DNA of 64,000 bases, from contig JAHILA010000014.1 of NCBI GenBank assembly GCA_018897295.1, forward strand, positions 67,891-131,890. The letters are read 5' to 3'. Below are positions 41,838-52,107 of this stretch, piece by piece. Under the pieces are notes generated by a model. That model worked only from the letters and a program-made list of their open reading frames with translations. It did not search any database and was not told the DNA's origin. Every line of letters starts with the position of its first letter. The stretch's first letter is position 1. The stretch comes from Patescibacteria group bacterium (GTDB lineage Bacteria; Patescibacteriota; Minisyncoccia; RBG-13-40-8-A). A program made the position numbers and the translations under genes.

Positions 41838-42086
41838 TTAAACACATAATTAATTAACCCCAGTAGTACAAACCTTTGGTTTGACTACGGGGCAAGCATA
41901 ATTCTTATGTAAAAAGAGCGAACAATTAAACGTACTTTAAAACAGAGTTTAGTTTTGGAATTTAGTTCAAAAATTGAGCTCTGTTTTAAATTGTTCTTTA
42001 AAATAGAAATATGTAATTGTACAGTAAGTTTGTGTGAGTTATTAGAGATCGAATCTTTTATAGTTGTTCTGATACAACTAAAATTA

Positions 42087-43560
42087 TTATTGAGAGTTTG
42101 ATCCTAGCTCAGGACGAACGCTGGCGGCGTGGATAAGGCATGCAAGTCGAATGGGTTTAGACCCATGGCGAACGAGTTAGTAACACGTAGGTACATCCCT
42201 CTGACTTGGGCATAACCCCGCGAAAGCGGGGATAATTCCCAATGGTGTCCCGATTTATCGGGACTAAAGGTTCCGGTGCAAATCGGAATCGGTGAGAGAG
42301 TGGCCTGCGGCCTATCAGCTAGTTGGTGAGGTAATAGCTTACCAAGGCTATGACGGGTAGGGGGCGTGAGAGCGTGTTCCCCAACGAGGGCACTGAGATA
42401 CGGGCCTTACTCCTACGGGAGGCAGCAGTCGAGAATCTTCCACAATGGGCGAAAGCCTGATGGAGCGACGCCGCGTGCATGAAGAAGTCCTTCGGGATGT
42501 AAAATGCTTTTATAAGGGAGCAATTTTTTGAGTGTACCTTATGAATAAGGGGTTGCTAAACTCGTGCCAGCAGCAGCGGTAATACGAGTGCCCCAAGCGT
42601 TGTCCGGAATTACTGGGCGTAAAGCGTCTGTAGGGGGTTTGATACGTCTTCTGTTAAATTTCGATGCTCAACATCGGAGCTGCAGGGGAAACGGTCAGAC
42701 TAGAGAGTGTGAGAGGCTGATGGAACTTAAGGAGTAGGGGTGAAATCCGTTGATACTTTAGGGAACACCAAAGGCGAAGGCATTCAGCTGGTGCATTTCT
42801 GACCCTGAGAGACGAAAGCGTGGGGAGCAAAAAGGATTAGATACCCTTGTAGTCCACGCCCTAAACTATGAATACTAGCTGTCTGAAGTATCGACCCTTC
42901 AGGTGGCGAAGCTAACGCGTTAAGTATTCCGCCTGGGAAGTACGGTCGCAAGACTAAAACTCAAAGGAATAGACGGGAGCTTGCACAAGCGGTGGAGCGT
43001 CTGGTTTAATTCGATGATAAGCGTAGAACCTTACCAGGACTTGAAATTCTAGTGAAACCCCGATGAAAGTCGGGTCTTCTACAAGGACACTAGAACAGGT
43101 GCTGCATGGTTGTCGTCAGCTTGTGGCGTGAGTTGCTCCGTTAATTCGGGTAACAAGCGCAACCCCTGTTGTCTGTTATATGTGTCAGACGAAACTGCCC
43201 CGTGATACGGGGAGGAAGGTAGGGATGACGCCAAATCAGCATGGCCCTCTGATGTCCTGGGCAACACAGGCGCTACAATGGCCGATACAATGGGTTGCCA
43301 AGCCGTAAGGTGGAGCCAATCCCATCAAAGTCGGTCCCAGTTCGGATTGGGGTCTGCAATTCGACCCCATGAAGTTGGAATCGCTAGTAATCGCAGATCA
43401 GCTACGCTGCGGTGAATACGTTCTCAAGCTTTGTACTCACTGCCTGTCACACCAGAGAAGCCGGGGGCACCTGACATTCTCGCATTGCGGGACCTAAGGT
43501 GAATTCGGTGACTAGGGTGAAGTCATAACAAGGCATCCGTAGGGGAACCTGTGGATGGAA
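42087..43560 (+). rRNA. 16S ribosomal RNA (3' boundary uncertain; canonical anti-SD not present after helix 45)
   Basis: AGAGTTTGATCCTAGCTCAG 5' end, internal universal blocks, 3' GTAGGGGAACCTGTGGATGGA; 515-site variant GTGCCAGCAGCAGCGGTAA. Confidence 0.9.
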
Positions 43561-43671
43561 AATATTTTTACTTAGTAACCATTTTGGATGCTAAGGAGAG
43601 TCGATTGAATCCGCCTTTGCGTAAAGCTTCGGCGGACAAGAGGGATTTAGATTTTTGTCCAAATAAAAATC

Positions 43672-43704
43672 AGGCCCGCTTCGACTCGCGAAGCGAGGCG
43701 AGTA
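43672..43704. repeat. GC palindrome element downstream of the 16S body
   Basis: GCCCGCTTCGACTCGCGAAGCGAGGCGAG (GCTTCG-ACTCG-CGAAGC). Confidence 0.5.
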
Positions 43705-43734
43705 TCAGGATAACTATAAAAGATTTGATTCAAA

Positions 43735-43761
43735 AAATCCTCCGCGTTGCGGGGGATTTTT
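43735..43761 (+). terminator. terminator-like hairpin containing the only CCTCC near the 16S 3' end
   Basis: AATCCTCCGCG-TTG-CGGGGGATTTTT. Confidence 0.45.
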
Positions 43762-43832
43762 AGTTCTCTATTGCATATTGTATTATTTTAGCTGTATAAT
43801 AGAATTAGTAATTATTAAATAAAAAAAACATT

Positions 43833-43991
43833 ATGGCAGATGTAGCATACTGCGTAAAATGCAGAAAAAAAGAAGAGATGAAAAATGCAGTAGAGGTTAA
43901 AATGAAAGGGAAGGGGGGAGACAGAAGGGCATTGAAAGGAATTTGTCCTGTTTGTGGAACTGGAATGTTCAGGATTTTAGGCAAAGCTTAA
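43833..43991 (+). CDS. small zinc-ribbon protein (52 aa), candidate
   Basis: CVKC-x24-CPVC; below the ORF-track size cutoff; followed by a hairpin AATCCCGCG-ACG-CGGGATT; no SD. Confidence 0.35.
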   Translation: MADVAYCVKCRKKEEMKNAVEVKMKGKGGDRRALKGICPVCGTGMFRILGKA

Positions 43992-44048
43992 AAGATTTTA
44001 AAAAATCTTATCAAAATTAATCCCGCGACGCGGGATTAATTTTGAGAA

Positions 44049-44120
44049 GGGCGTGTAGTTCACCGGTAGAACGCTTCACTGATAATGAAGAAGTAGAAGG
44101 TTCGACTCCTTCCACGCCCA
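44049..44120 (+). tRNA. tRNA-Ile (anticodon GAT)
   Basis: Manual cloverleaf: GGGCGTG/CACGCCC acceptor, anticodon loop CTGATAA, T-arm GAAGG-TTCGACT-CCTTC. Confidence 0.8.
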
Positions 44121-44143
44121 CTCAACTCGTCTTAATTTTGTTC

Positions 44144-44214
44144 GGGCCTATAGTTTAATGGTAGAACACCGCATTTGCAATGCGGAAATAGCAGTCCGAT
44201 TCTGCTTAGGTCCA
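44144..44214 (+). tRNA. tRNA-Ala (anticodon TGC)
   Basis: G3:U70 identity pair, anticodon loop TTTGCAA; T-loop slightly atypical. Confidence 0.7.
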
Positions 44215-44218
44215 CAAT

Positions 44219-44247
44219 TAAAAAATCTCGCTATGCGAGATTTTTTA
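44219..44247. terminator. bidirectional Rho-independent terminator (tRNA cluster / murC)
   Basis: AAAAATCTCGC-TAT-GCGAGATTTTTT. Confidence 0.75.
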
Positions 44248-44262
44248 ATATTTTAATTCATC

Positions 44263-45567
44263 TTATTTTTTCATTTCTTCTCCAATCTTATATACATCTC
44301 CCGCGCCGAGAAAGAGAATAATACTATTTTTATCAGTATTTTGTTCCAAATAGTTTTTTATTTCGTCAAAACTACTGATGTATTTCGCATTGACGGTCTG
44401 CATTGCTTTAACTAAATCTTTGGAATGGATTGTGTGGTCATCTTTTTCACGCGTAGCATAGATATCAGTGATAATAACTTCATTTGCCAAATTAAAACTT
44501 TCTGCAAAATCATTTAATAAAAGTTTTGTGCGCGAATATAAATGCGGTTGGAAAACAACAATCAGTTTATAGTTTGGATATTGTTCGTTGCAGGTTTTTA
44601 AAGTTGCTTTTATTTCTGTGGGGTGGTGGCCGTAGTCATTGTAAAGTAATGCGCCATTTTTTGCATTGCCCATAAATTCAAACCTGCGCCAGGTGCCAGT
44701 ATAATTTTTTAGGATTTTTAAAGCGGTTTTTTCTTCTATTCCGCACAATTTGGCCGCGTCAAACGCGGCTTGCGCATTTTTAAGATTGTGTTCGCCGGGA
44801 ATGGATAATTTAATATCGGCTTTTCCTTCATTATAATCAATTATCTTTGCCAATTGGTTTATTTTTTTTGCTTTTTTAATTGCTTTGTCCGTATTTTCGT
44901 CATTTAAATCGCAGATAATATATTCTTTTGTTTTGGCGATTAATTTTGCAAAAGCATTTTGGATGTTTTCAATATTTTCATAATAATCCAAATGGTCACT
45001 ATCAATATTTAAAATTACGAGAATATTCGGAGTCAGGTTCAAGAATGATTCTTTATATTCGCAGGCTTCAACAATAAAATATTTACTGCTTCCTAAAACA
45101 AAATTATCTTCCTGTTTTTTTAAAAATCCGCCGACAACAACAGTAGGGTCTAAGTTTCCATAAATCATCAATTCAGCAAGCATGGAAGTAGTGGTTGTTT
45201 TGCCGTGGGCTCCGGATATGGCAATGGTATACATATCTTTGGAAATCAATCCAAGGATTTCTGGATACGAATAAATTGGAATGTTTAGCGTTCTGCCATA
45301 AATTAATTCTGGATTATCCTCGGTTATGGCAGGGGAGTAGATAATCATATTTGTATCTGAAGGCAGATTTTCTTTTTTGTGGTCAATAAAAACCTTCCCC
45401 CCGATTTTTTCAATCCGTTCAGTCGTTTTTCCCGCGGAAATATCAGAACCAGTAACCTTTATACCTTTTAACCGCGCCATTCTGGCAATTGCAGACACTC
45501 CGACACCCCCAATTCCGATAAAATGTATTTTCTTAACGTGGTCGAACATAAGTTTAAATTTTATCAC
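44263..45567 (-). CDS. murC: UDP-N-acetylmuramate--L-alanine ligase
   Basis: IHFIGIGGVGVSAIA N-terminal Rossmann, GAHGKTTTTSM P-loop, Mur ligase C-domain. Confidence 0.85.
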   Translation of the reverse strand: MIKFKLMFDHVKKIHFIGIGGVGVSAIARMARLKGIKVTGSDISAGKTTERIEKIGGKVFIDHKKENLPSDTNMIIYSPAITEDNPELIYGRTLNIPIYSYPEILGLISKDMYTIAISGAHGKTTTTSMLAELMIYGNLDPTVVVGGFLKKQEDNFVLGSSKYFIVEACEYKESFLNLTPNILVILNIDSDHLDYYENIENIQNAFAKLIAKTKEYIICDLNDENTDKAIKKAKKINQLAKIIDYNEGKADIKLSIPGEHNLKNAQAAFDAAKLCGIEEKTALKILKNYTGTWRRFEFMGNAKNGALLYNDYGHHPTEIKATLKTCNEQYPNYKLIVVFQPHLYSRTKLLLNDFAESFNLANEVIITDIYATREKDDHTIHSKDLVKAMQTVNAKYISSFDEIKNYLEQNTDKNSIILFLGAGDVYKIGEEMKK

Positions 45568-45629
45568 AGAGAATCTTTGTTGCCAAATTAATTTTGTGCT
45601 ATAATTAATTATGTTATAATTAAATTAAA

Positions 45630-45678
45630 GGTCGACCTGCCTGCAACGTCAGCAAACTGTCTTGCGTGGCGGGCAGGG
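45630..45678. repeat. GC palindrome element in the divergent intergenic region
   Basis: GACCTGCCTGCAACG...CGTGGCGGGCAGGG. Confidence 0.45.
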
Positions 45679-45703
45679 AATTAAGAATTAAAATTATTTT
45701 ATT

Positions 45704-46372
45704 ATGTTAGAAATATTACTTGATTCATTGACGCAAATTTGGCAGAGCTTTATTGAGTTCTTACCGACATTATTGGCATCTTTAATCGTTTTCATTGTAG
45801 GCTGGTTGATTGCTATATTCTTGGGCAAGATGGTTAACCGAATGATAAAAGCTATAAAACTTGATCTGCTTTTAGAAAGGCTTAATTTTCAGAAAGCATT
45901 AGCCAAAGCAAGATTAAAATTGGACTCTCCGAAGTTTTTTGAAGAACTTGTAAAATGGTTTTTCATTATCGTTTTCTTAATGACAGCAGTTGAGATTTTA
46001 GGATTAGTAGAGGTAACTCTGTTTTTAAAGGGCATCCTTTATTACATACCTAATGTTGTGATTGCCGCTATCATGCTTTTGGCCGCAGCTATTGTTGCGA
46101 AGTTTATGCAGAAATTAGTGAAAGCCAGTGCTGATACTGCCGGCCTTTCATCAGCAAATGCGATTTCCGGAGTTGTGAAGTGGGCAATTTTGATTTTCGG
46201 TTTTGTAATTGCTTTAACCCAATTAGGAATTGCCGCAGCTTTAATCCAGACAATCATTATTGGAATTATTGCTATGATTACGATTGCAGGCGGTCTTGCA
46301 TTCGGCCTAGGAGGAAAGGATCTGGCAGCTAATATTCTGGACAAAATTAGGCAGGATTTAAGCGATAGATAG
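45704..46372 (+). CDS. membrane protein with conserved TM-helix repeats (MscS/CmpX-like family, tentative)
   Basis: Repeated hydrophobic helices with G/A-rich faces; no enzymatic motif. Confidence 0.4.
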   Translation: MLEILLDSLTQIWQSFIEFLPTLLASLIVFIVGWLIAIFLGKMVNRMIKAIKLDLLLERLNFQKALAKARLKLDSPKFFEELVKWFFIIVFLMTAVEILGLVEVTLFLKGILYYIPNVVIAAIMLLAAAIVAKFMQKLVKASADTAGLSSANAISGVVKWAILIFGFVIALTQLGIAAALIQTIIIGIIAMITIAGGLAFGLGGKDLAANILDKIRQDLSDR

Positions 46373-46383
46373 TAATAGAGGAC

Positions 46384-46412
46384 TTGACACGCGATTTTTT
46401 ACCATTTACAAT
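46384..46412 (+). promoter_or_regulatory. candidate 23S rRNA promoter
   Basis: GAGGACTTGACA-N17-TACAAT about 200 nt upstream of the 23S 5' end. Confidence 0.55.
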
Positions 46413-47136
46413 GGTAGTGTTGTTAGTTTATATGAGAAAAAACCAAAAACAATTTATAAAAAAGAGCGGTTGATAAAACCAGGTATTTTCATACCCGTGG
46501 ATGTCAAACCGCTAAAAGCGGTTTTTTCAATCCTGAACTTTGAAAATTGAATATGTATAGCAAGTAATAAAAGTAATAATAAGTAGTAGTATCTATAAAT
46601 TGCCAGCTATATTAAGCAGGTTATATATTAAGGGTGTATGGTGGATGCCTTGACATTAGAAGACGAAGAAGGACGTGGCGTAACTGCGATAAGCCTCGGG
46701 GAGGTGTGTAGCGACCTTAGATCCGGGGATGTCCGAATGGGGAAACCCAATATAGTGATAAACTATATTATCCCGACTTTATTGTTGGGAGGTGAACTCG
46801 GCGAAGTAAAACATTTCAGTAGCCGGAGGAACAGAGAAAAACTTTATTCCCCAAGTAGTGGCGAGCGAAAAGGGAAGAGCCCAAACCTGATGGTCCCGCA
46901 TTTGTGGGATTATTAGGGGTAGTAAGATAGTGACGTCGGGAGAAATCCCGGGGAGTGAATACAAAACTAAGACTTCCTTAGTTGAAAGGGATGGAAAGCC
47001 CTACCGAAGAAGGTAATAGTCCTGTAAGCGAAAAGGGTCTTATACTCCTAGTCATTAATCTTGAGTACCGCGAGAACATGCAGTCTCGCGGGAATCATCC
47101 TGAACTATCTAGGAAAGGCTAAATACTTCTAATGAT

Positions 47137-47175
<39 letters not shown>

Positions 47176-48447
47176 GCCCGACAAGGGCAGTGAAATAGTA
47201 CCTGAAATCATACACTTACAAAGAGTCGGAGCCCCGCATTAGCGGGGTGACGGCGTGCTTTTTGCAGAACGAACCAACGAGTTTACCGTAGACTGTTTTG
47301 TCTAAGTCCGTAAAGGACGGAGGCGTAGGGAAACCGAGTGTTAATAGCGCGTTTTATAACAGTATGCGTAAGACCCGAAGCCAGGTGAGCTACCCATGGC
47401 CAGGATGAACCCCGATGAAAATCGGGGGGAGGTCCGAACCCATCGGCCGTGCAATACCGTGGGATGAGCTGTGGGTTGGAGTGAAAAGCTAATCGAACCT
47501 GGTAATAGCTGGTTCTCCTCGAAATATGTTTAGGCATAGCCTCTTATTTTTCTCCTTAGGGGTAGAGCACTAAATGGGCTGAGGTGGCGCAAGCCTACTC
47601 ACTCAATTAAACTCCGAATACTAAGACAGATAATAAGGGAGTAAGACTGTGGGGGCTAAGCTCCATAGTCAAAAGGGAAACAGCCCAGATCGTCATCTAA
47701 GGTCCCAAAACTAAGTTAAGTGGGAAAAGAAGTGCCTCGTCTTATACAGATGGGATGTTGGCTTAGAAGTAGCCATCATTTAAAGAGTGTGTAATAACTC
47801 ACCATTCTATTTATGACGAAGTGCGCTGAAAATGTAACGGGGCTCAAACTTAGTACCGAAGATACGAATTTCTCTCCGATTTATCGGAGAGGAGTGGTAG
47901 AGGAGCATTTCTTGTGCTGTGAAGTCATTTCGTGAGGAATGGTGGAGCGCAAGGAAGAGAGAATGTTGGTATGAGTAACCGCAAGTCTGATGCGAAATCA
48001 GACCACCGAAAGCCCAAGGATTCCTTGGCAATGTAAATCAACCAAGGGTTAGGCGGGCCTAAGGCAATCCCGAAAGGGGTAGTCGATGGACAGTCGGTTA
48101 ATATTCCGACCCTTCTGTATTTTTTTATGGAGTGACGGAGTTTAGTAGATAGGGCAGATTATTGGATTTTTGTCTGTATATTAAGAAGCTAGGCTAGGTA
48201 AATCCGGTTTAGAATACTTCAAGATATGCAGGAAGTTTCGATTTCGATCGGGATTACCCTATTGAGCAGACTTCCAAGAAAAACTTCTAAAATAAGAATA
48301 CAGGATCCGTACCGCAAACCGACACAGGTGGGCAGGGCGAGAAGCCCAAGGTGAACGGGTTAACCCTCGTTAAGGAACTCGGCAAAATAGCGGCCGTAAG
48401 TTCGCAATAAGGCCTTCCCCCGCTTAGCGGGGGACGCAGCTAAAGAT

Positions 48448-48478
<31 letters not shown>

Positions 48479-49347
48479 CCTGCTAACTCGTAAGAGGATG
48501 TATAGGGGCTGACACTTGACCAGTGCTGGAAGGTTAATGGTGGGGGTGTCTCGACCTTGCGTCGGGATGCTCACTGCTTGAAGCCCCAGTGAACGTCGGC
48601 GATAACTATAATCGTCCTAAGGTACCGAAATTCCTTGGCATGTAAGTTATGTCCTGCAGGAAAAGTGTAACGACTGGAGAACTGTCTCAACGAGGAGCCC
48701 GGTGAAAATGCAGTGTCAGTGAAGATGCTGACTACCTGCGACAAGACGAAAAGACCCCAGGAGCTTTACTATAACTTGGTATTGTTTTAATGTTTTTGAT
48801 GCGTAGCGTAGACGGTAGGATTTGAAGGTCGCCTCTCGGGGCGGCTGGATCCGACAATGAAACACCGTTCTTTAAAAATGTTAAAACTAACCCCTCCGTA
48901 ACAGAGAGGGACAGTGCCAGGCGGGTAGTTTTAGTGGGGCGCTAGCCTCCTAAAGAGTAACGGAGGCGTTTATTAAGGTCGACTAGCTCCGGATGGAAAT
49001 CGGAGTGATAGTGTAAAGGCAAAAGTCGGCTTTACTGCAAGACTGACAGGTCGCGCAGTTGCGAAAGCAGAACTTAGTGAACCGACTCTGGTTAATAGAA
49101 TCGGAGAAGATCATCGGACAAAAGCTACCCTGGGGATAACAGGCTGGTAGGCGCTAAGAGTTCATATCGACGCGTCTGTTCGGCACCTCGATGTCGGCTC
49201 ATCTCATCCTGGAGGTGGAGAAGCTTCCAAGGGTTTGGCTGTTCGCCAATTAAAGAGGTACGTGAGCTGGGTTCAAACCGTCGTGAGACAGGTTGGACTC
49301 CTATCTGTCGTAGGCGTAGATACTTGAGAGACTTTGTCCCTAGTAAG

Positions 49348-50104
49348 AATATTGCTACTTCACGAAGTAATTCGTGATGACAATGTGGCTTATAACGGTG
49401 AAGTCTTAATAAAATATGGTCTATTGATAATCATTATTGCATCGGTCCAATAATAATGATACAATTTAATTGAGGACCAGATAATTATTAAGATAATACC
49501 GTGGGAAGTCGATCTAAAATTAATTATGCGTATATTGCAGGATTTCTTGATGGTGATGGAAGTTTAATGTTTCAAATCAAAAAACGGAAAGATGGCAAAT
49601 CTAAAATAAGATTTATGCTGACTATCTGTTTTTATCAAGATTCTAGACATGCAAAACCACTATACTGGATTAAAAGAGTTTTGAGGATAGGTTATATCTC
49701 AAAACGTAAAGACGGAATTACTGAATTAAGGATTAACGGTTTTAAGCAGATTAAGGATATAGTGGGGAATTTAATTCCATTTATCAAATTTAAGAAAGTC
49801 CAAGCAAAAGCAATATATAGCGCTGCGAATCTTTTGAATTGTGTAAAAAACAAGGATTTATCTGAGAAAGATTTACACAGGTTAATAAATTATATTCTGG
49901 TGATTCAGAATAATAATTATGTGACCAAAAAAAAGAAGACTAAAAAAGATTTGTTAAAGATTTTAGATTTGACCCCGTAACGACTTGATCCGATTTCCAT
50001 CGGATCGGAGTTCAGTAGAAATACTGAGCTAATACGCCACTACCCTAATTCCGATTAACGTCGGAATGGGTAAAGATATAGTCTGCGCACATAGTGATAT
50101 GTGA
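49348..50104 (+). mobile_element. intron (probably group I) in 23S rRNA carrying a homing endonuclease gene
   Basis: Insertion between exon sequences CCCTAGTA and CGAGAGGACC; contains the LAGLIDADG ORF; boundaries approximate. Confidence 0.6.
49501..49980 (+). CDS. LAGLIDADG homing endonuclease (intron-encoded)
   Basis: YIAGFLDGDGSLMF LAGLIDADG motif; 159 aa, single-motif type; located inside the 23S gene. Confidence 0.85.
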   Translation: MGSRSKINYAYIAGFLDGDGSLMFQIKKRKDGKSKIRFMLTICFYQDSRHAKPLYWIKRVLRIGYISKRKDGITELRINGFKQIKDIVGNLIPFIKFKKVQAKAIYSAANLLNCVKNKDLSEKDLHRLINYILVIQNNNYVTKKKKTKKDLLKILDLTP

Positions 50105-50405
50105 TAACGTGACGAGAGGACCGGGATGAACAAACCTCTGGTGTACCAGCTGTCCTGCCAAGGGCACTGCTGGGTAGCTATGTTTGGCAGAGATAAATGC
50201 TGAAAGCATATAAGCGTGAAACTCTTCTCAAGATTAAGTATCATAGATTCCTTGAAGACTACAAGGTTGATAGGCTTCAGGTGTAAGTCCTGTAAAGGAT
50301 TTAGCCGAGAAGTACTAATAAATCATTTTGCCTGTTTAATACGGCTGGCAATTTTTGGACACTACACTTTAAAATAATTTTATTTGCAACAAACAAGATT
50401 GCGGT

Positions 50406-50528
50406 CATTGTAAGGGGGTTATACTTGGGGTGCTCCACCTGATCCCATTCCGAACTCAGAAGTGAAATCCTTAAAGGCCGATGGTACCCCGATGAACTTC
50501 GGGGAAGAGTAGGTGACCCTCCTACAAT
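50406..50528 (+). rRNA. 5S ribosomal RNA
   Basis: CCACCTGATCCCATTCCGAACTCAGAAGTGAAA and GGCCGATGGTACCCCG...GGGGAAGAGTAGG conserved blocks. Confidence 0.75.
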
Positions 50529-50799: not shown

Positions 50800-52107
50800 A
50801 TGGAAAGAATTTTAATTTCTAAAATTAAAGAAAAAATTGGACAAAAGACCAAAATCATTGGCTGGGTTTATAATATACGCGATATAGGGTCCATAAAATT
50901 TTTGGTCATCAGGGACGTAAGCGGAATAATTCAGGTAGTCGTTAGTGGCGAAGAATTAATAAAAGTTGTTAAACCAATAAGACTGGAATCAATCGTTGAA
51001 ATTATTGGTATAGTTAAAACGGAGAAACAAGCACCAGGAGGAATTGAAATAATGGCAGAAGAAATAAAAATAATTTCAATTCCATTAGAAACGCCTCCAA
51101 TTTCTGTTTTGGAAAAGGAAGAAACAGAAGCGTCTTTGGAAAAAAGAATGGATTGGCGCTGGATTGATTTAAGAAAACCTCGGAAACAATTGATTTTTAA
51201 GGTTTGGACAACAATGGAAATGGCTTTTAGGAAATGGTGGCTTGAACATGGATTTATTCAGATACATTCTCCGAAATTAATGAGTGCGGCGAGTGAAATC
51301 GGGTCAGAACTTTTTCAGATTTCTTATTTTAACGGAAAAGCATATTTGGCTCAATCGCCACAATTCTATAAACAAATGGCAATGGCATCGGGATTTGAAA
51401 AGGTCTTTGAAATCGGTCCTGTTTTTCGGGCAAACCCATCGTTTACTTCAAGACATGATACAGAATTTACCAGTTACGATATTGAAATGTCATTTATTGA
51501 ATCACACCAAAAATTAATCGAGACAGAACAAGAAATGTTTGTTTATATGATTTCTGAAGTTAAAGAAGAGTACGGTGAGGAAATTGAAAAAGAATTTGGA
51601 AGGAAATTAGTTATTCCTACAATTCCGTTTCCTCAAATTACCATGAAGGAAGCAAAAGAAATGCTTTCTCATTATGATATTAAAAACAGAAGGGAGGGGG
51701 ACTTAAGCCCCGAAGAAGAAAGAAAACTGAGTGAAATCATAAAAGAAAAATACGGGCATGAATTTTGTTTTGTTACCGAATATCCGAGCAGCGTTCGGCC
51801 GTTTTATCATATGCGTCCACAAGGAGATTCTAAATTTACAAAAAGCTTTGATCTTCTGTGGAATGGTCTAGAGATTACAACAGGCGCTCAAAGAGAGCAT
51901 CGATACGAGGTTCTGAAAAAACAAGCGATTGAAAAAGGAATCAAAACCGAAGAGATTAAACATTATCTGGAATTCTTTAAGTATGGCTGTCCGCCTCATG
52001 GGGGATTTGCGATTGGCGCGACAAGATTACTTATGAAGATATTCAATATTGGCAATGTCAGAGAAGTTACTTATCTTTATCGCGGCGTTAAAAGATTAAC
52101 TCCATAG
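50800..52107 (+). CDS. aspS: aspartyl-tRNA synthetase, archaeal/compact type (probably non-discriminating)
   Basis: QSPQFYKQMAMASGFEKVFEIGPVFRA, RHDTEFTSYDIEMSF, GGFAIGATRLLM class IIb motifs; 435 aa; gatB present in the window. Confidence 0.7.
   Translation: MERILISKIKEKIGQKTKIIGWVYNIRDIGSIKFLVIRDVSGIIQVVVSGEELIKVVKPIRLESIVEIIGIVKTEKQAPGGIEIMAEEIKIISIPLETPPISVLEKEETEASLEKRMDWRWIDLRKPRKQLIFKVWTTMEMAFRKWWLEHGFIQIHSPKLMSAASEIGSELFQISYFNGKAYLAQSPQFYKQMAMASGFEKVFEIGPVFRANPSFTSRHDTEFTSYDIEMSFIESHQKLIETEQEMFVYMISEVKEEYGEEIEKEFGRKLVIPTIPFPQITMKEAKEMLSHYDIKNRREGDLSPEEERKLSEIIKEKYGHEFCFVTEYPSSVRPFYHMRPQGDSKFTKSFDLLWNGLEITTGAQREHRYEVLKKQAIEKGIKTEEIKHYLEFFKYGCPPHGGFAIGATRLLMKIFNIGNVREVTYLYRGVKRLTP

Follow-up and report, generated by a model that had tools for sequence, protein, structure and literature searches.

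We analyzed a stretch of 64,000 nucleotides from a Patescibacteria group bacterium (the window) and found that its 23S rRNA gene (46618–50325, + strand) is split by a 767-nt insert inside the sarcin-ricin loop (SRL). In all probability, the insert is a mobile IA-type group I intron at U2656|A2657 (E. coli numbering) that carries a gene for a homodimer-type LAGLIDADG protein in its loop L6 and works at two levels, through splicing of the RNA and homing of the DNA. The intron is one more member of an already known class, 23IS14. Our analysis adds the exact splice sites, a secondary structure supported by covariation, the assignment to the IA type, and the overlap of the open reading frame (ORF) with P4 and P6. 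The features are listed in Table 1.

Table 1. Positions of the 23S rRNA exons, the intron and its structural elements in the window.
Feature	Position	Strand	Basis
23S rRNA exon 1, ends at E. coli U2656	46618..49344	+	RF02541; E. coli numbering
Group I intron, 767 nt, L2656 ('2657'/23IS14 of Tsurumaki)	49345..50111	+	U•G and omega-G rules, 69/69 homologous introns; covariation
23S rRNA exon 2, from A2657 (ACGAGAGGACC...)	50112..50325	+	RF02541 alignment
P1: exon UAGU and intron AA (49341-49346) with guide UUGCUA (49352-49357)	49341..49357	+	Comparative alignment
P2 hairpin UCACGAA-GUAA-UUCGUGA, GNRA loop	49360..49377	+	7/7 pairs changed on both sides; 98.8% of cells paired
P3 5′ strand GUGGC, with GCCAC 50036-50040	49385..49389	+	3/5 pairs covary; 90.9% paired
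P4 5′ strand ACGGU, with ACCGU 49498-49502	49395..49399	+	99.6% paired
P5 (49403-49410 / 49487-49494) with long distal extension	49403..49494	+	5/8 pairs covary
P5b in the P5 extension	49430-49460	+	Both P5b segments covary
Invariant motif in the P5 extension, UUGAGGACCA	49470-49479	+	Comparative alignment
Predicted LAGLIDADG homing endonuclease gene in loop L6, 159 aa, one motif, GTG start	49501..49980	+	ORF; Pfam
P6 5′ strand (ORF codons 1-7), with 49960-49976 (last ORF codons)	49503..49520	+	
P7 5′ strand GACU, with AGUC 50080-50083; presumed guanosine-binding helix	49982..49985	+	Invariant in 46/46
P7.1 (49987-50006) and P7.2 (50009-50030, GAAA loop), between P7 and P3′	49987..50030	+	
P8 hairpin	50043..50070	+	Both segments covary
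J8/7 and P7 3′ strand, UAAAGAUAUAGUC	50071..50083	+	RF00028 consensus match; invariant across the set
P9.0 (50085-50087 / 50108-50110), P9 hairpin 50088-50103 with GUGA loop, omega-G 50111	50085..50111	+	

The Rfam bacterial LSU model (RF02541) aligned to the gene as far as ...CCCUAGUA, skipped 774 nt, and resumed inside the 3′ half of the SRL. By direct reading, exon 1 ends in ...TTTGTCCCTAGT at 49344 and exon 2 begins with ACGAGAGGACCGGG at 50112; when joined, the two exons give the canonical SRL sequence CCCUAGUACGAGAGGACCGGG. One A could be assigned to either end of the intron by this reading. The boundaries were therefore set by the group I rules (U at position −1, G as the last base) and by the covarying P9.0 beside this G, which give an intron at 49345–50111. 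A sequence-only reading of the window had proposed an interruption of about 760 nt at 49348–50104; it had found the right locus, and its ends lay 3 and 7 nt inside the true ones.

Alignment to the annotated E. coli 23S rRNA placed the junction at U2656|A2657. The bulged-G motif of the SRL is thereby interrupted 3 nt 5′ of A2660, the target of ricin. The site is thus fixed in reference numbering, and the earlier suggestion that the insertion splits the SRL was correct. The E. coli copy that was aligned is offset by +2 relative to the 2904-nt reference, and the numbering was checked on the landmark GAUAACAG (2447–2454). Without the insert the 23S rRNA is 2941 nt long, close to the 2925 nt of the model, and the 767-nt insert is therefore the sole large insertion in this gene. 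In the 16S gene, no insertion was seen with Rfam.

The rRNA locus lies on the + strand and contains the 16S gene (42086–43570), tRNA-Ile(GAT), tRNA-Ala(UGC), the 23S gene and the 5S gene (50411–50525). The gap of about 3 kb between 16S and 23S (43571–46617) holds the two tRNA genes, then murC on the − strand (44263–45567) and an ORF for a mechanosensitive-channel-like membrane protein (45704–46372) that scores below the NCBIfam cut-off. Because of murC and the membrane ORF in this gap, the rRNA genes may not form one simple operon. The gene after 5S (50800–52107) encodes an aspartyl-tRNA synthetase (AspRS) of the non-discriminating, archaeal type, for which one 66%-identical match in the protein collection was labelled Nanoarchaeota and lay on a 1.5-kb contig.

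We built a secondary structure model by hand from a comparative alignment of homologous introns and scored it on 46 introns. Standard pairs occupied 86.6% of the model cells (shuffled mean, 76.2%; 0 of 500 shuffles as high; slid controls, 37%–44%), a share that is inflated by the derivation of both the alignment and the model from the window sequence. The count of cells changed on both sides is free of this inflation, and it reached 558 where 209 were expected. Compensatory changes were found in P3, P5, P6, P8, and P9, and the changes in P2, P9, and P9.0 were almost fully compensatory. Covariation was seen in eight of the nine pairs of P7.2, in all five at the base of P7.1, in five of the 15 pairs of P6 (96.8% paired), in all three of P9.0, and in five of the six of P9 (100% paired).

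P1, P4, and P7 were uninformative on covariation because they contain no compensatory changes. The guide TTGCTA of P1 was invariant, and the changes in this helix were one-sided A/G only; in P4, three pairs were invariant and two had a single one-sided change. The U•G of P1 is formed by U49344, the base at the 5′ splice site, and G49354. At the other end, P9.0 consists of 3 bp directly 5′ of omega-G. The presence of P7.1 and P7.2 between P7 and P3′ is typical of the IA type, to which we assign the intron.

The covarying core helices, together with the U•G pair and omega-G found in all 69 introns that we extracted, support the earlier proposal that the insert is an intron. An expansion segment was rejected as an explanation, since the insert has a group I core with compensatory changes and both the U•G and omega-G are invariant. 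We likewise set aside a group II intron and an intron of the archaeal bulge-helix-bulge type, since both boundaries are explained by group I elements and the DNA comes from a bacterium.

A comparison with the Rfam group I model, which the sequence-only reading had proposed, gave a divided result. RF00028 (Intron_gpI) matched the J8/7-P7-P9 stretch (E = 1.4 × 10−4 in a 1.2-kb search); AAGAUAUAGUC was aligned to the J8/7-P7 consensus, with AAGAUAU as J8/7, and the 3′ strand of P7 to the P7 consensus. However, the score was 27 bits and missed the gathering threshold of 50. RF00028 aligns well only 3′ of the ORF, since its model is interrupted by the 480 nt of the ORF in L6 and by the large extension of P5. 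For the SRL intron of another locus (L058), no Rfam match was reported at E ≤ 0.01. The same 23S gene of L058 has a second group I intron upstream (868–1586; Rfam, 41.6 bits) with a different LAGLIDADG ORF. A near-identical GACCCCGUAACGACUUG string occurs there at the ORF end, J6-7 and P7, and this shared string suggests that related introns occupy different rRNA sites.

We scanned one genome per species and found at least 559 genome loci encoding a related endonuclease. Eighty loci were fetched and examined with the window (81 sequences), and the whole element could be extracted from 69 of the 81. It sits at the same site in every one of the 69 and follows the pattern ...YTAGT | A......G | ACGAGAGG, with U at −1, A at +1, and a terminal G.

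This result bears on the explanation that the insert is retained in the rRNA, as an unspliced or decaying intron, as part of a dead rRNA operon, or as an assembly artefact. According to a reference cited in PMC11270868, a group I intron in the 23S rRNA of Simkania remains unspliced. Our view is limited to one 64-kb window, which would also leave room for such a case. However, the same architecture recurs in 69 independently assembled loci, and both the ribozyme pairs and the protein are under strong purifying selection. The exons are fully conserved, and the 16S, tRNA, and 5S genes alongside are intact. In CPR genomes the rRNA genes usually occur as one copy, and the factor-binding site would be lost if 767 nt stayed in the bulged-G motif. 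We consider retention of the insert extremely improbable.

The titles of the 80 fetched loci named Patescibacteria/CPR lineages, save for several labelled "bacterium isolate" and one labelled "uncultured proteobacterium"; the last (L079, a 6-kb contig) is probably a binning error. The host AspRS was 100% identical to an NCBI protein of "Patescibacteria group bacterium", and exon 1 of the 23S rRNA shared 89% identity with a Patescibacteria MAG (L001). Judged from these matches, the host belongs to CPR/Patescibacteria, in accord with the earlier remark that intron-containing rRNA genes are a hallmark of CPR bacteria; intron-rich rRNA genes are documented for CPR (PMC11270868). About 25 further loci besides L008, L010, and L012 bore the title "uncultured Candidatus Saccharibacteria bacterium", and all of them had the window-type intron. 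Saccharibacteria lack such introns according to PMC11270868, and these titles may be generic labels.

The 159-aa ORF with the LAGLIDADG motif (YIAGFLDGDGS) had been noticed in the sequence-only reading, and its nature was confirmed by a match to Pfam LAGLIDADG_1 (E = 4.4 × 10−11; 44 bits, cut-off 23.1) and by homology to enzymes of the I-CreI type. Its best relative with a solved structure was I-MsoI (E = 5 × 10−23), followed by I-CvuI (5 × 10−13) and I-CreI (about 1 × 10−10), with residues 9–139 aligned. By sequence similarity, the endonuclease is a single-domain, homodimer-type LAGLIDADG protein related to these three. In the protein alignment, residues G14-F15-L16-D17-G18-D19 were invariant among 12 homologs, and so were Q46 and K98. 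A large protein collection contained 2810 related proteins; the best 120 were 68%–100% identical, and almost all of these were about 159 aa long.

In the middle of the ORF, synonymous sites were saturated (pS = 0.81), pN was 0.24, and pN/pS was 0.30; the dN/dS of the gene relative to that of L001 was 0.11. These ratios indicate that the protein is under purifying selection. In one Paceibacterota MAG (L005), the gene (2501–2980) is interrupted by an in-frame stop at the position of Q46, a residue that is otherwise invariant, and the intron ends are intact. This looks like a decayed endonuclease in a retained ribozyme.

The predicted target of the endonuclease in intron-less SRL rDNA lies within TTTGTCCCTAGTACGAGAGGACCGGGAT. 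The presumed target around the junction is weakly palindromic (5 of 11 symmetric positions, central GT|AC). In a palindrome search of the presumed target, other centres scored equally, and nothing was better than chance.

The gene and the ribozyme overlap at both ends of the ORF, which as a whole forms loop L6. Its first and last codons, about seven at each end, form P6, and the 3′ strand of P4 (49498–49502) overlaps the GUG start codon; the stretches with this double role are 49498–49520 and 49960–49980. Synonymous sites were nearly frozen at the two ends of the ORF, with pS of 0.16 and 0.26 compared with 0.81 in the middle. The protein ends MGSRSKI... and ...KILDLTP and the GTG start are conserved because the ORF ends double as P4/P6. 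Folding of the ribozyme core and initiation of translation should be mutually exclusive.

The intron has practically no P10, which could contain one A-U pair at best, and the exon contributes only 4 bp to P1. Thus, selection of the splice sites may need P9.0 or a helper. A real intron that requires a protein helper, either a LAGLIDADG maturase or a host factor, for its folding or for the choice of the 3′ splice site would fit these two features. It would also fit the position of the start codon and the first ORF codons inside P4/P6, which couples the protein tightly to the RNA fold, and LAGLIDADG maturases are known from organelle introns (PMC11270868). However, none of the catalytic motif residues varies, as would be expected if nuclease activity is under selection, and no part of the core seems to be missing, since it includes P9.0 and three GNRA loops. 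Moreover, the ribozyme of L005 is intact despite the stop in its endonuclease gene. Dependence on a helper is therefore unlikely, and the intron may splice by itself.

The P5 extension contains a motif that repeats part of the SRL. The motif TTGAGGACCA (49470–49479) was present in 66 of the 68 homologous introns, and its 7-mer GAGGACC also occurs in the 3′ strand of the SRL in exon 2 (50116–50122). The L5b loop GGUCC (49444–49448) is complementary to both the intron and the exon 2 copies of GAGGACC. A pseudoknot between the loop GGUCC and GGACC was paired in 87% of cases in the 46 introns and showed no covariation, because one side is invariant. The L5b loop might pair alternately with the intron copy and with the exon copy and thereby capture the 3′ exon in place of the missing P10, although we regard this as a speculative and quite improbable idea. 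If it were true, the intron would possess an exon-mimic device suited specifically to its place in the SRL. Two further candidates were set aside in the same region. Pairing of GGUC (49418–49421) with the invariant GGACC was dropped since its 5′ side varies without compensation, and the invariant GAGGA was rejected as a Shine-Dalgarno site of the endonuclease because its distance of 24 nt from the GUG does not fit such a site.

At the RNA level, the intron would be transcribed in the pre-23S rRNA and its P3–P9 core would fold. The internal guide UUGCUA would pair with the exon UAGU to form P1, and an external guanosine bound in P7 would attack after U2656. P9.0 would then place omega-G in the guanosine site, so that the freed 3′-OH of U2656 could attack after omega-G; U2656 would be joined to A2657 and the intact SRL restored. 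At the DNA level, the 159-aa protein would dimerise and cut the SRL-coding sequence of 23S rDNA that lacks the intron; a copy with the intron would then serve as the template for repair, and the element would spread (homing). We infer the splicing, the self-splicing without helper proteins, the endonuclease activity, and its target from the sequences and the structure model.

Splicing with ligation has to be weighed against excision alone, in which the insert would be removed like an intervening sequence (IVS) processed by RNase III and the 23S rRNA would be left in two pieces. Fragmented 23S rRNAs and intervening sequences are found in bacteria, probably also at two other CPR sites, 23IS2 and 23IS4 (PMC11270868). 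However, the group I core, the covarying P9.0 beside omega-G, and the U•G in P1 serve exon ligation. The site is not a known IVS site either; no hairpin tip is replaced, and the insert lies in the internal motif of the SRL. A single break in the SRL backbone, as made by alpha-sarcin between G2661 and A2662, inactivates ribosomes, and a cell would hardly be expected to tolerate a nick at 2656/2657. Excision without ligation is thus very improbable.

Real splicing with ligation is favoured because the bulged-G motif is disrupted, because there is about one rRNA copy in CPR, and because a nick in the SRL inactivates ribosomes. The earlier proposal that splicing would be essential for this 23S rRNA is a sound one. 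CPR bacteria have basically one rRNA gene copy (PMC9297842). According to PMC9297842, a comparison of genes with transcripts by Brown et al. (2015) pointed to introns as the nature of the CPR insertions.

Tsurumaki et al. (2024; J Bacteriol, PMC11270868) studied 348 CPR 23S genes and found insertions in 82% of them, at 14 hot spots. They described 23IS14, at position 2657, as a group I site with predominantly LAGLIDADG_1 proteins that is unreported from non-CPR bacteria. The window intron agrees with 23IS14 in its CPR host, the position 2657, the group-I-like RNA, and the single-domain LAGLIDADG_1 ORF, and nothing essential differs. The enzyme characterised in that paper, I-ShaI, comes from another site (23IS7). 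The word "sarcin" does not occur in the paper, and for 23IS14 it presents neither a secondary structure nor the exact splice sites. Our literature search for an intron at 23S positions 2655–2657 or in the SRL found only the paper of Tsurumaki et al. naming one.

We also compared the intron with known systems outside CPR. The chloroplast introns of Chlamydomonas and Monomastix that encode I-CreI and I-MsoI (L2593), and that of I-CvuI, share with it the 23S host gene, the IA type, and a homodimer-type protein of about 160 aa with sequence similarity (E from 5 × 10−23 to 1 × 10−9). In the Chlamydomonas and Monomastix introns the ORF is also looped out of P6. However, the I-CreI and I-MsoI introns lie in the 2593 region of chloroplast genes, and so have another DNA target, whereas the present one lies in the SRL of a CPR bacterium.

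The 23S introns of Coxiella (L1917, L1951), Thermotoga, Simkania, and cyanobacteria (L1931 and others) are likewise group I introns in conserved regions, often with LAGLIDADG proteins, but they are found in domain IV/V near the peptidyl transferase centre. The td intron of phage T4 (IA2, I-TevI) resembles the window intron in its IA-type core with P7.1/P7.2 and in its ORF in the P6 loop. It differs in its protein-coding host gene, its GIY-YIG endonuclease, and its nature as a phage element.

The SRL ranks among the parts of rRNA that are best conserved and tolerate change least. Since a single rRNA operon is usual in CPR bacteria, all ribosomes of the host should depend on accurate removal of the intron and religation of the exons. 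The endonuclease should recognise a near-universal rDNA sequence and may interest meganuclease engineers, and the structure model could guide splicing and cleavage experiments. The element shows the reach of selfish introns into essential sites of CPR bacteria.
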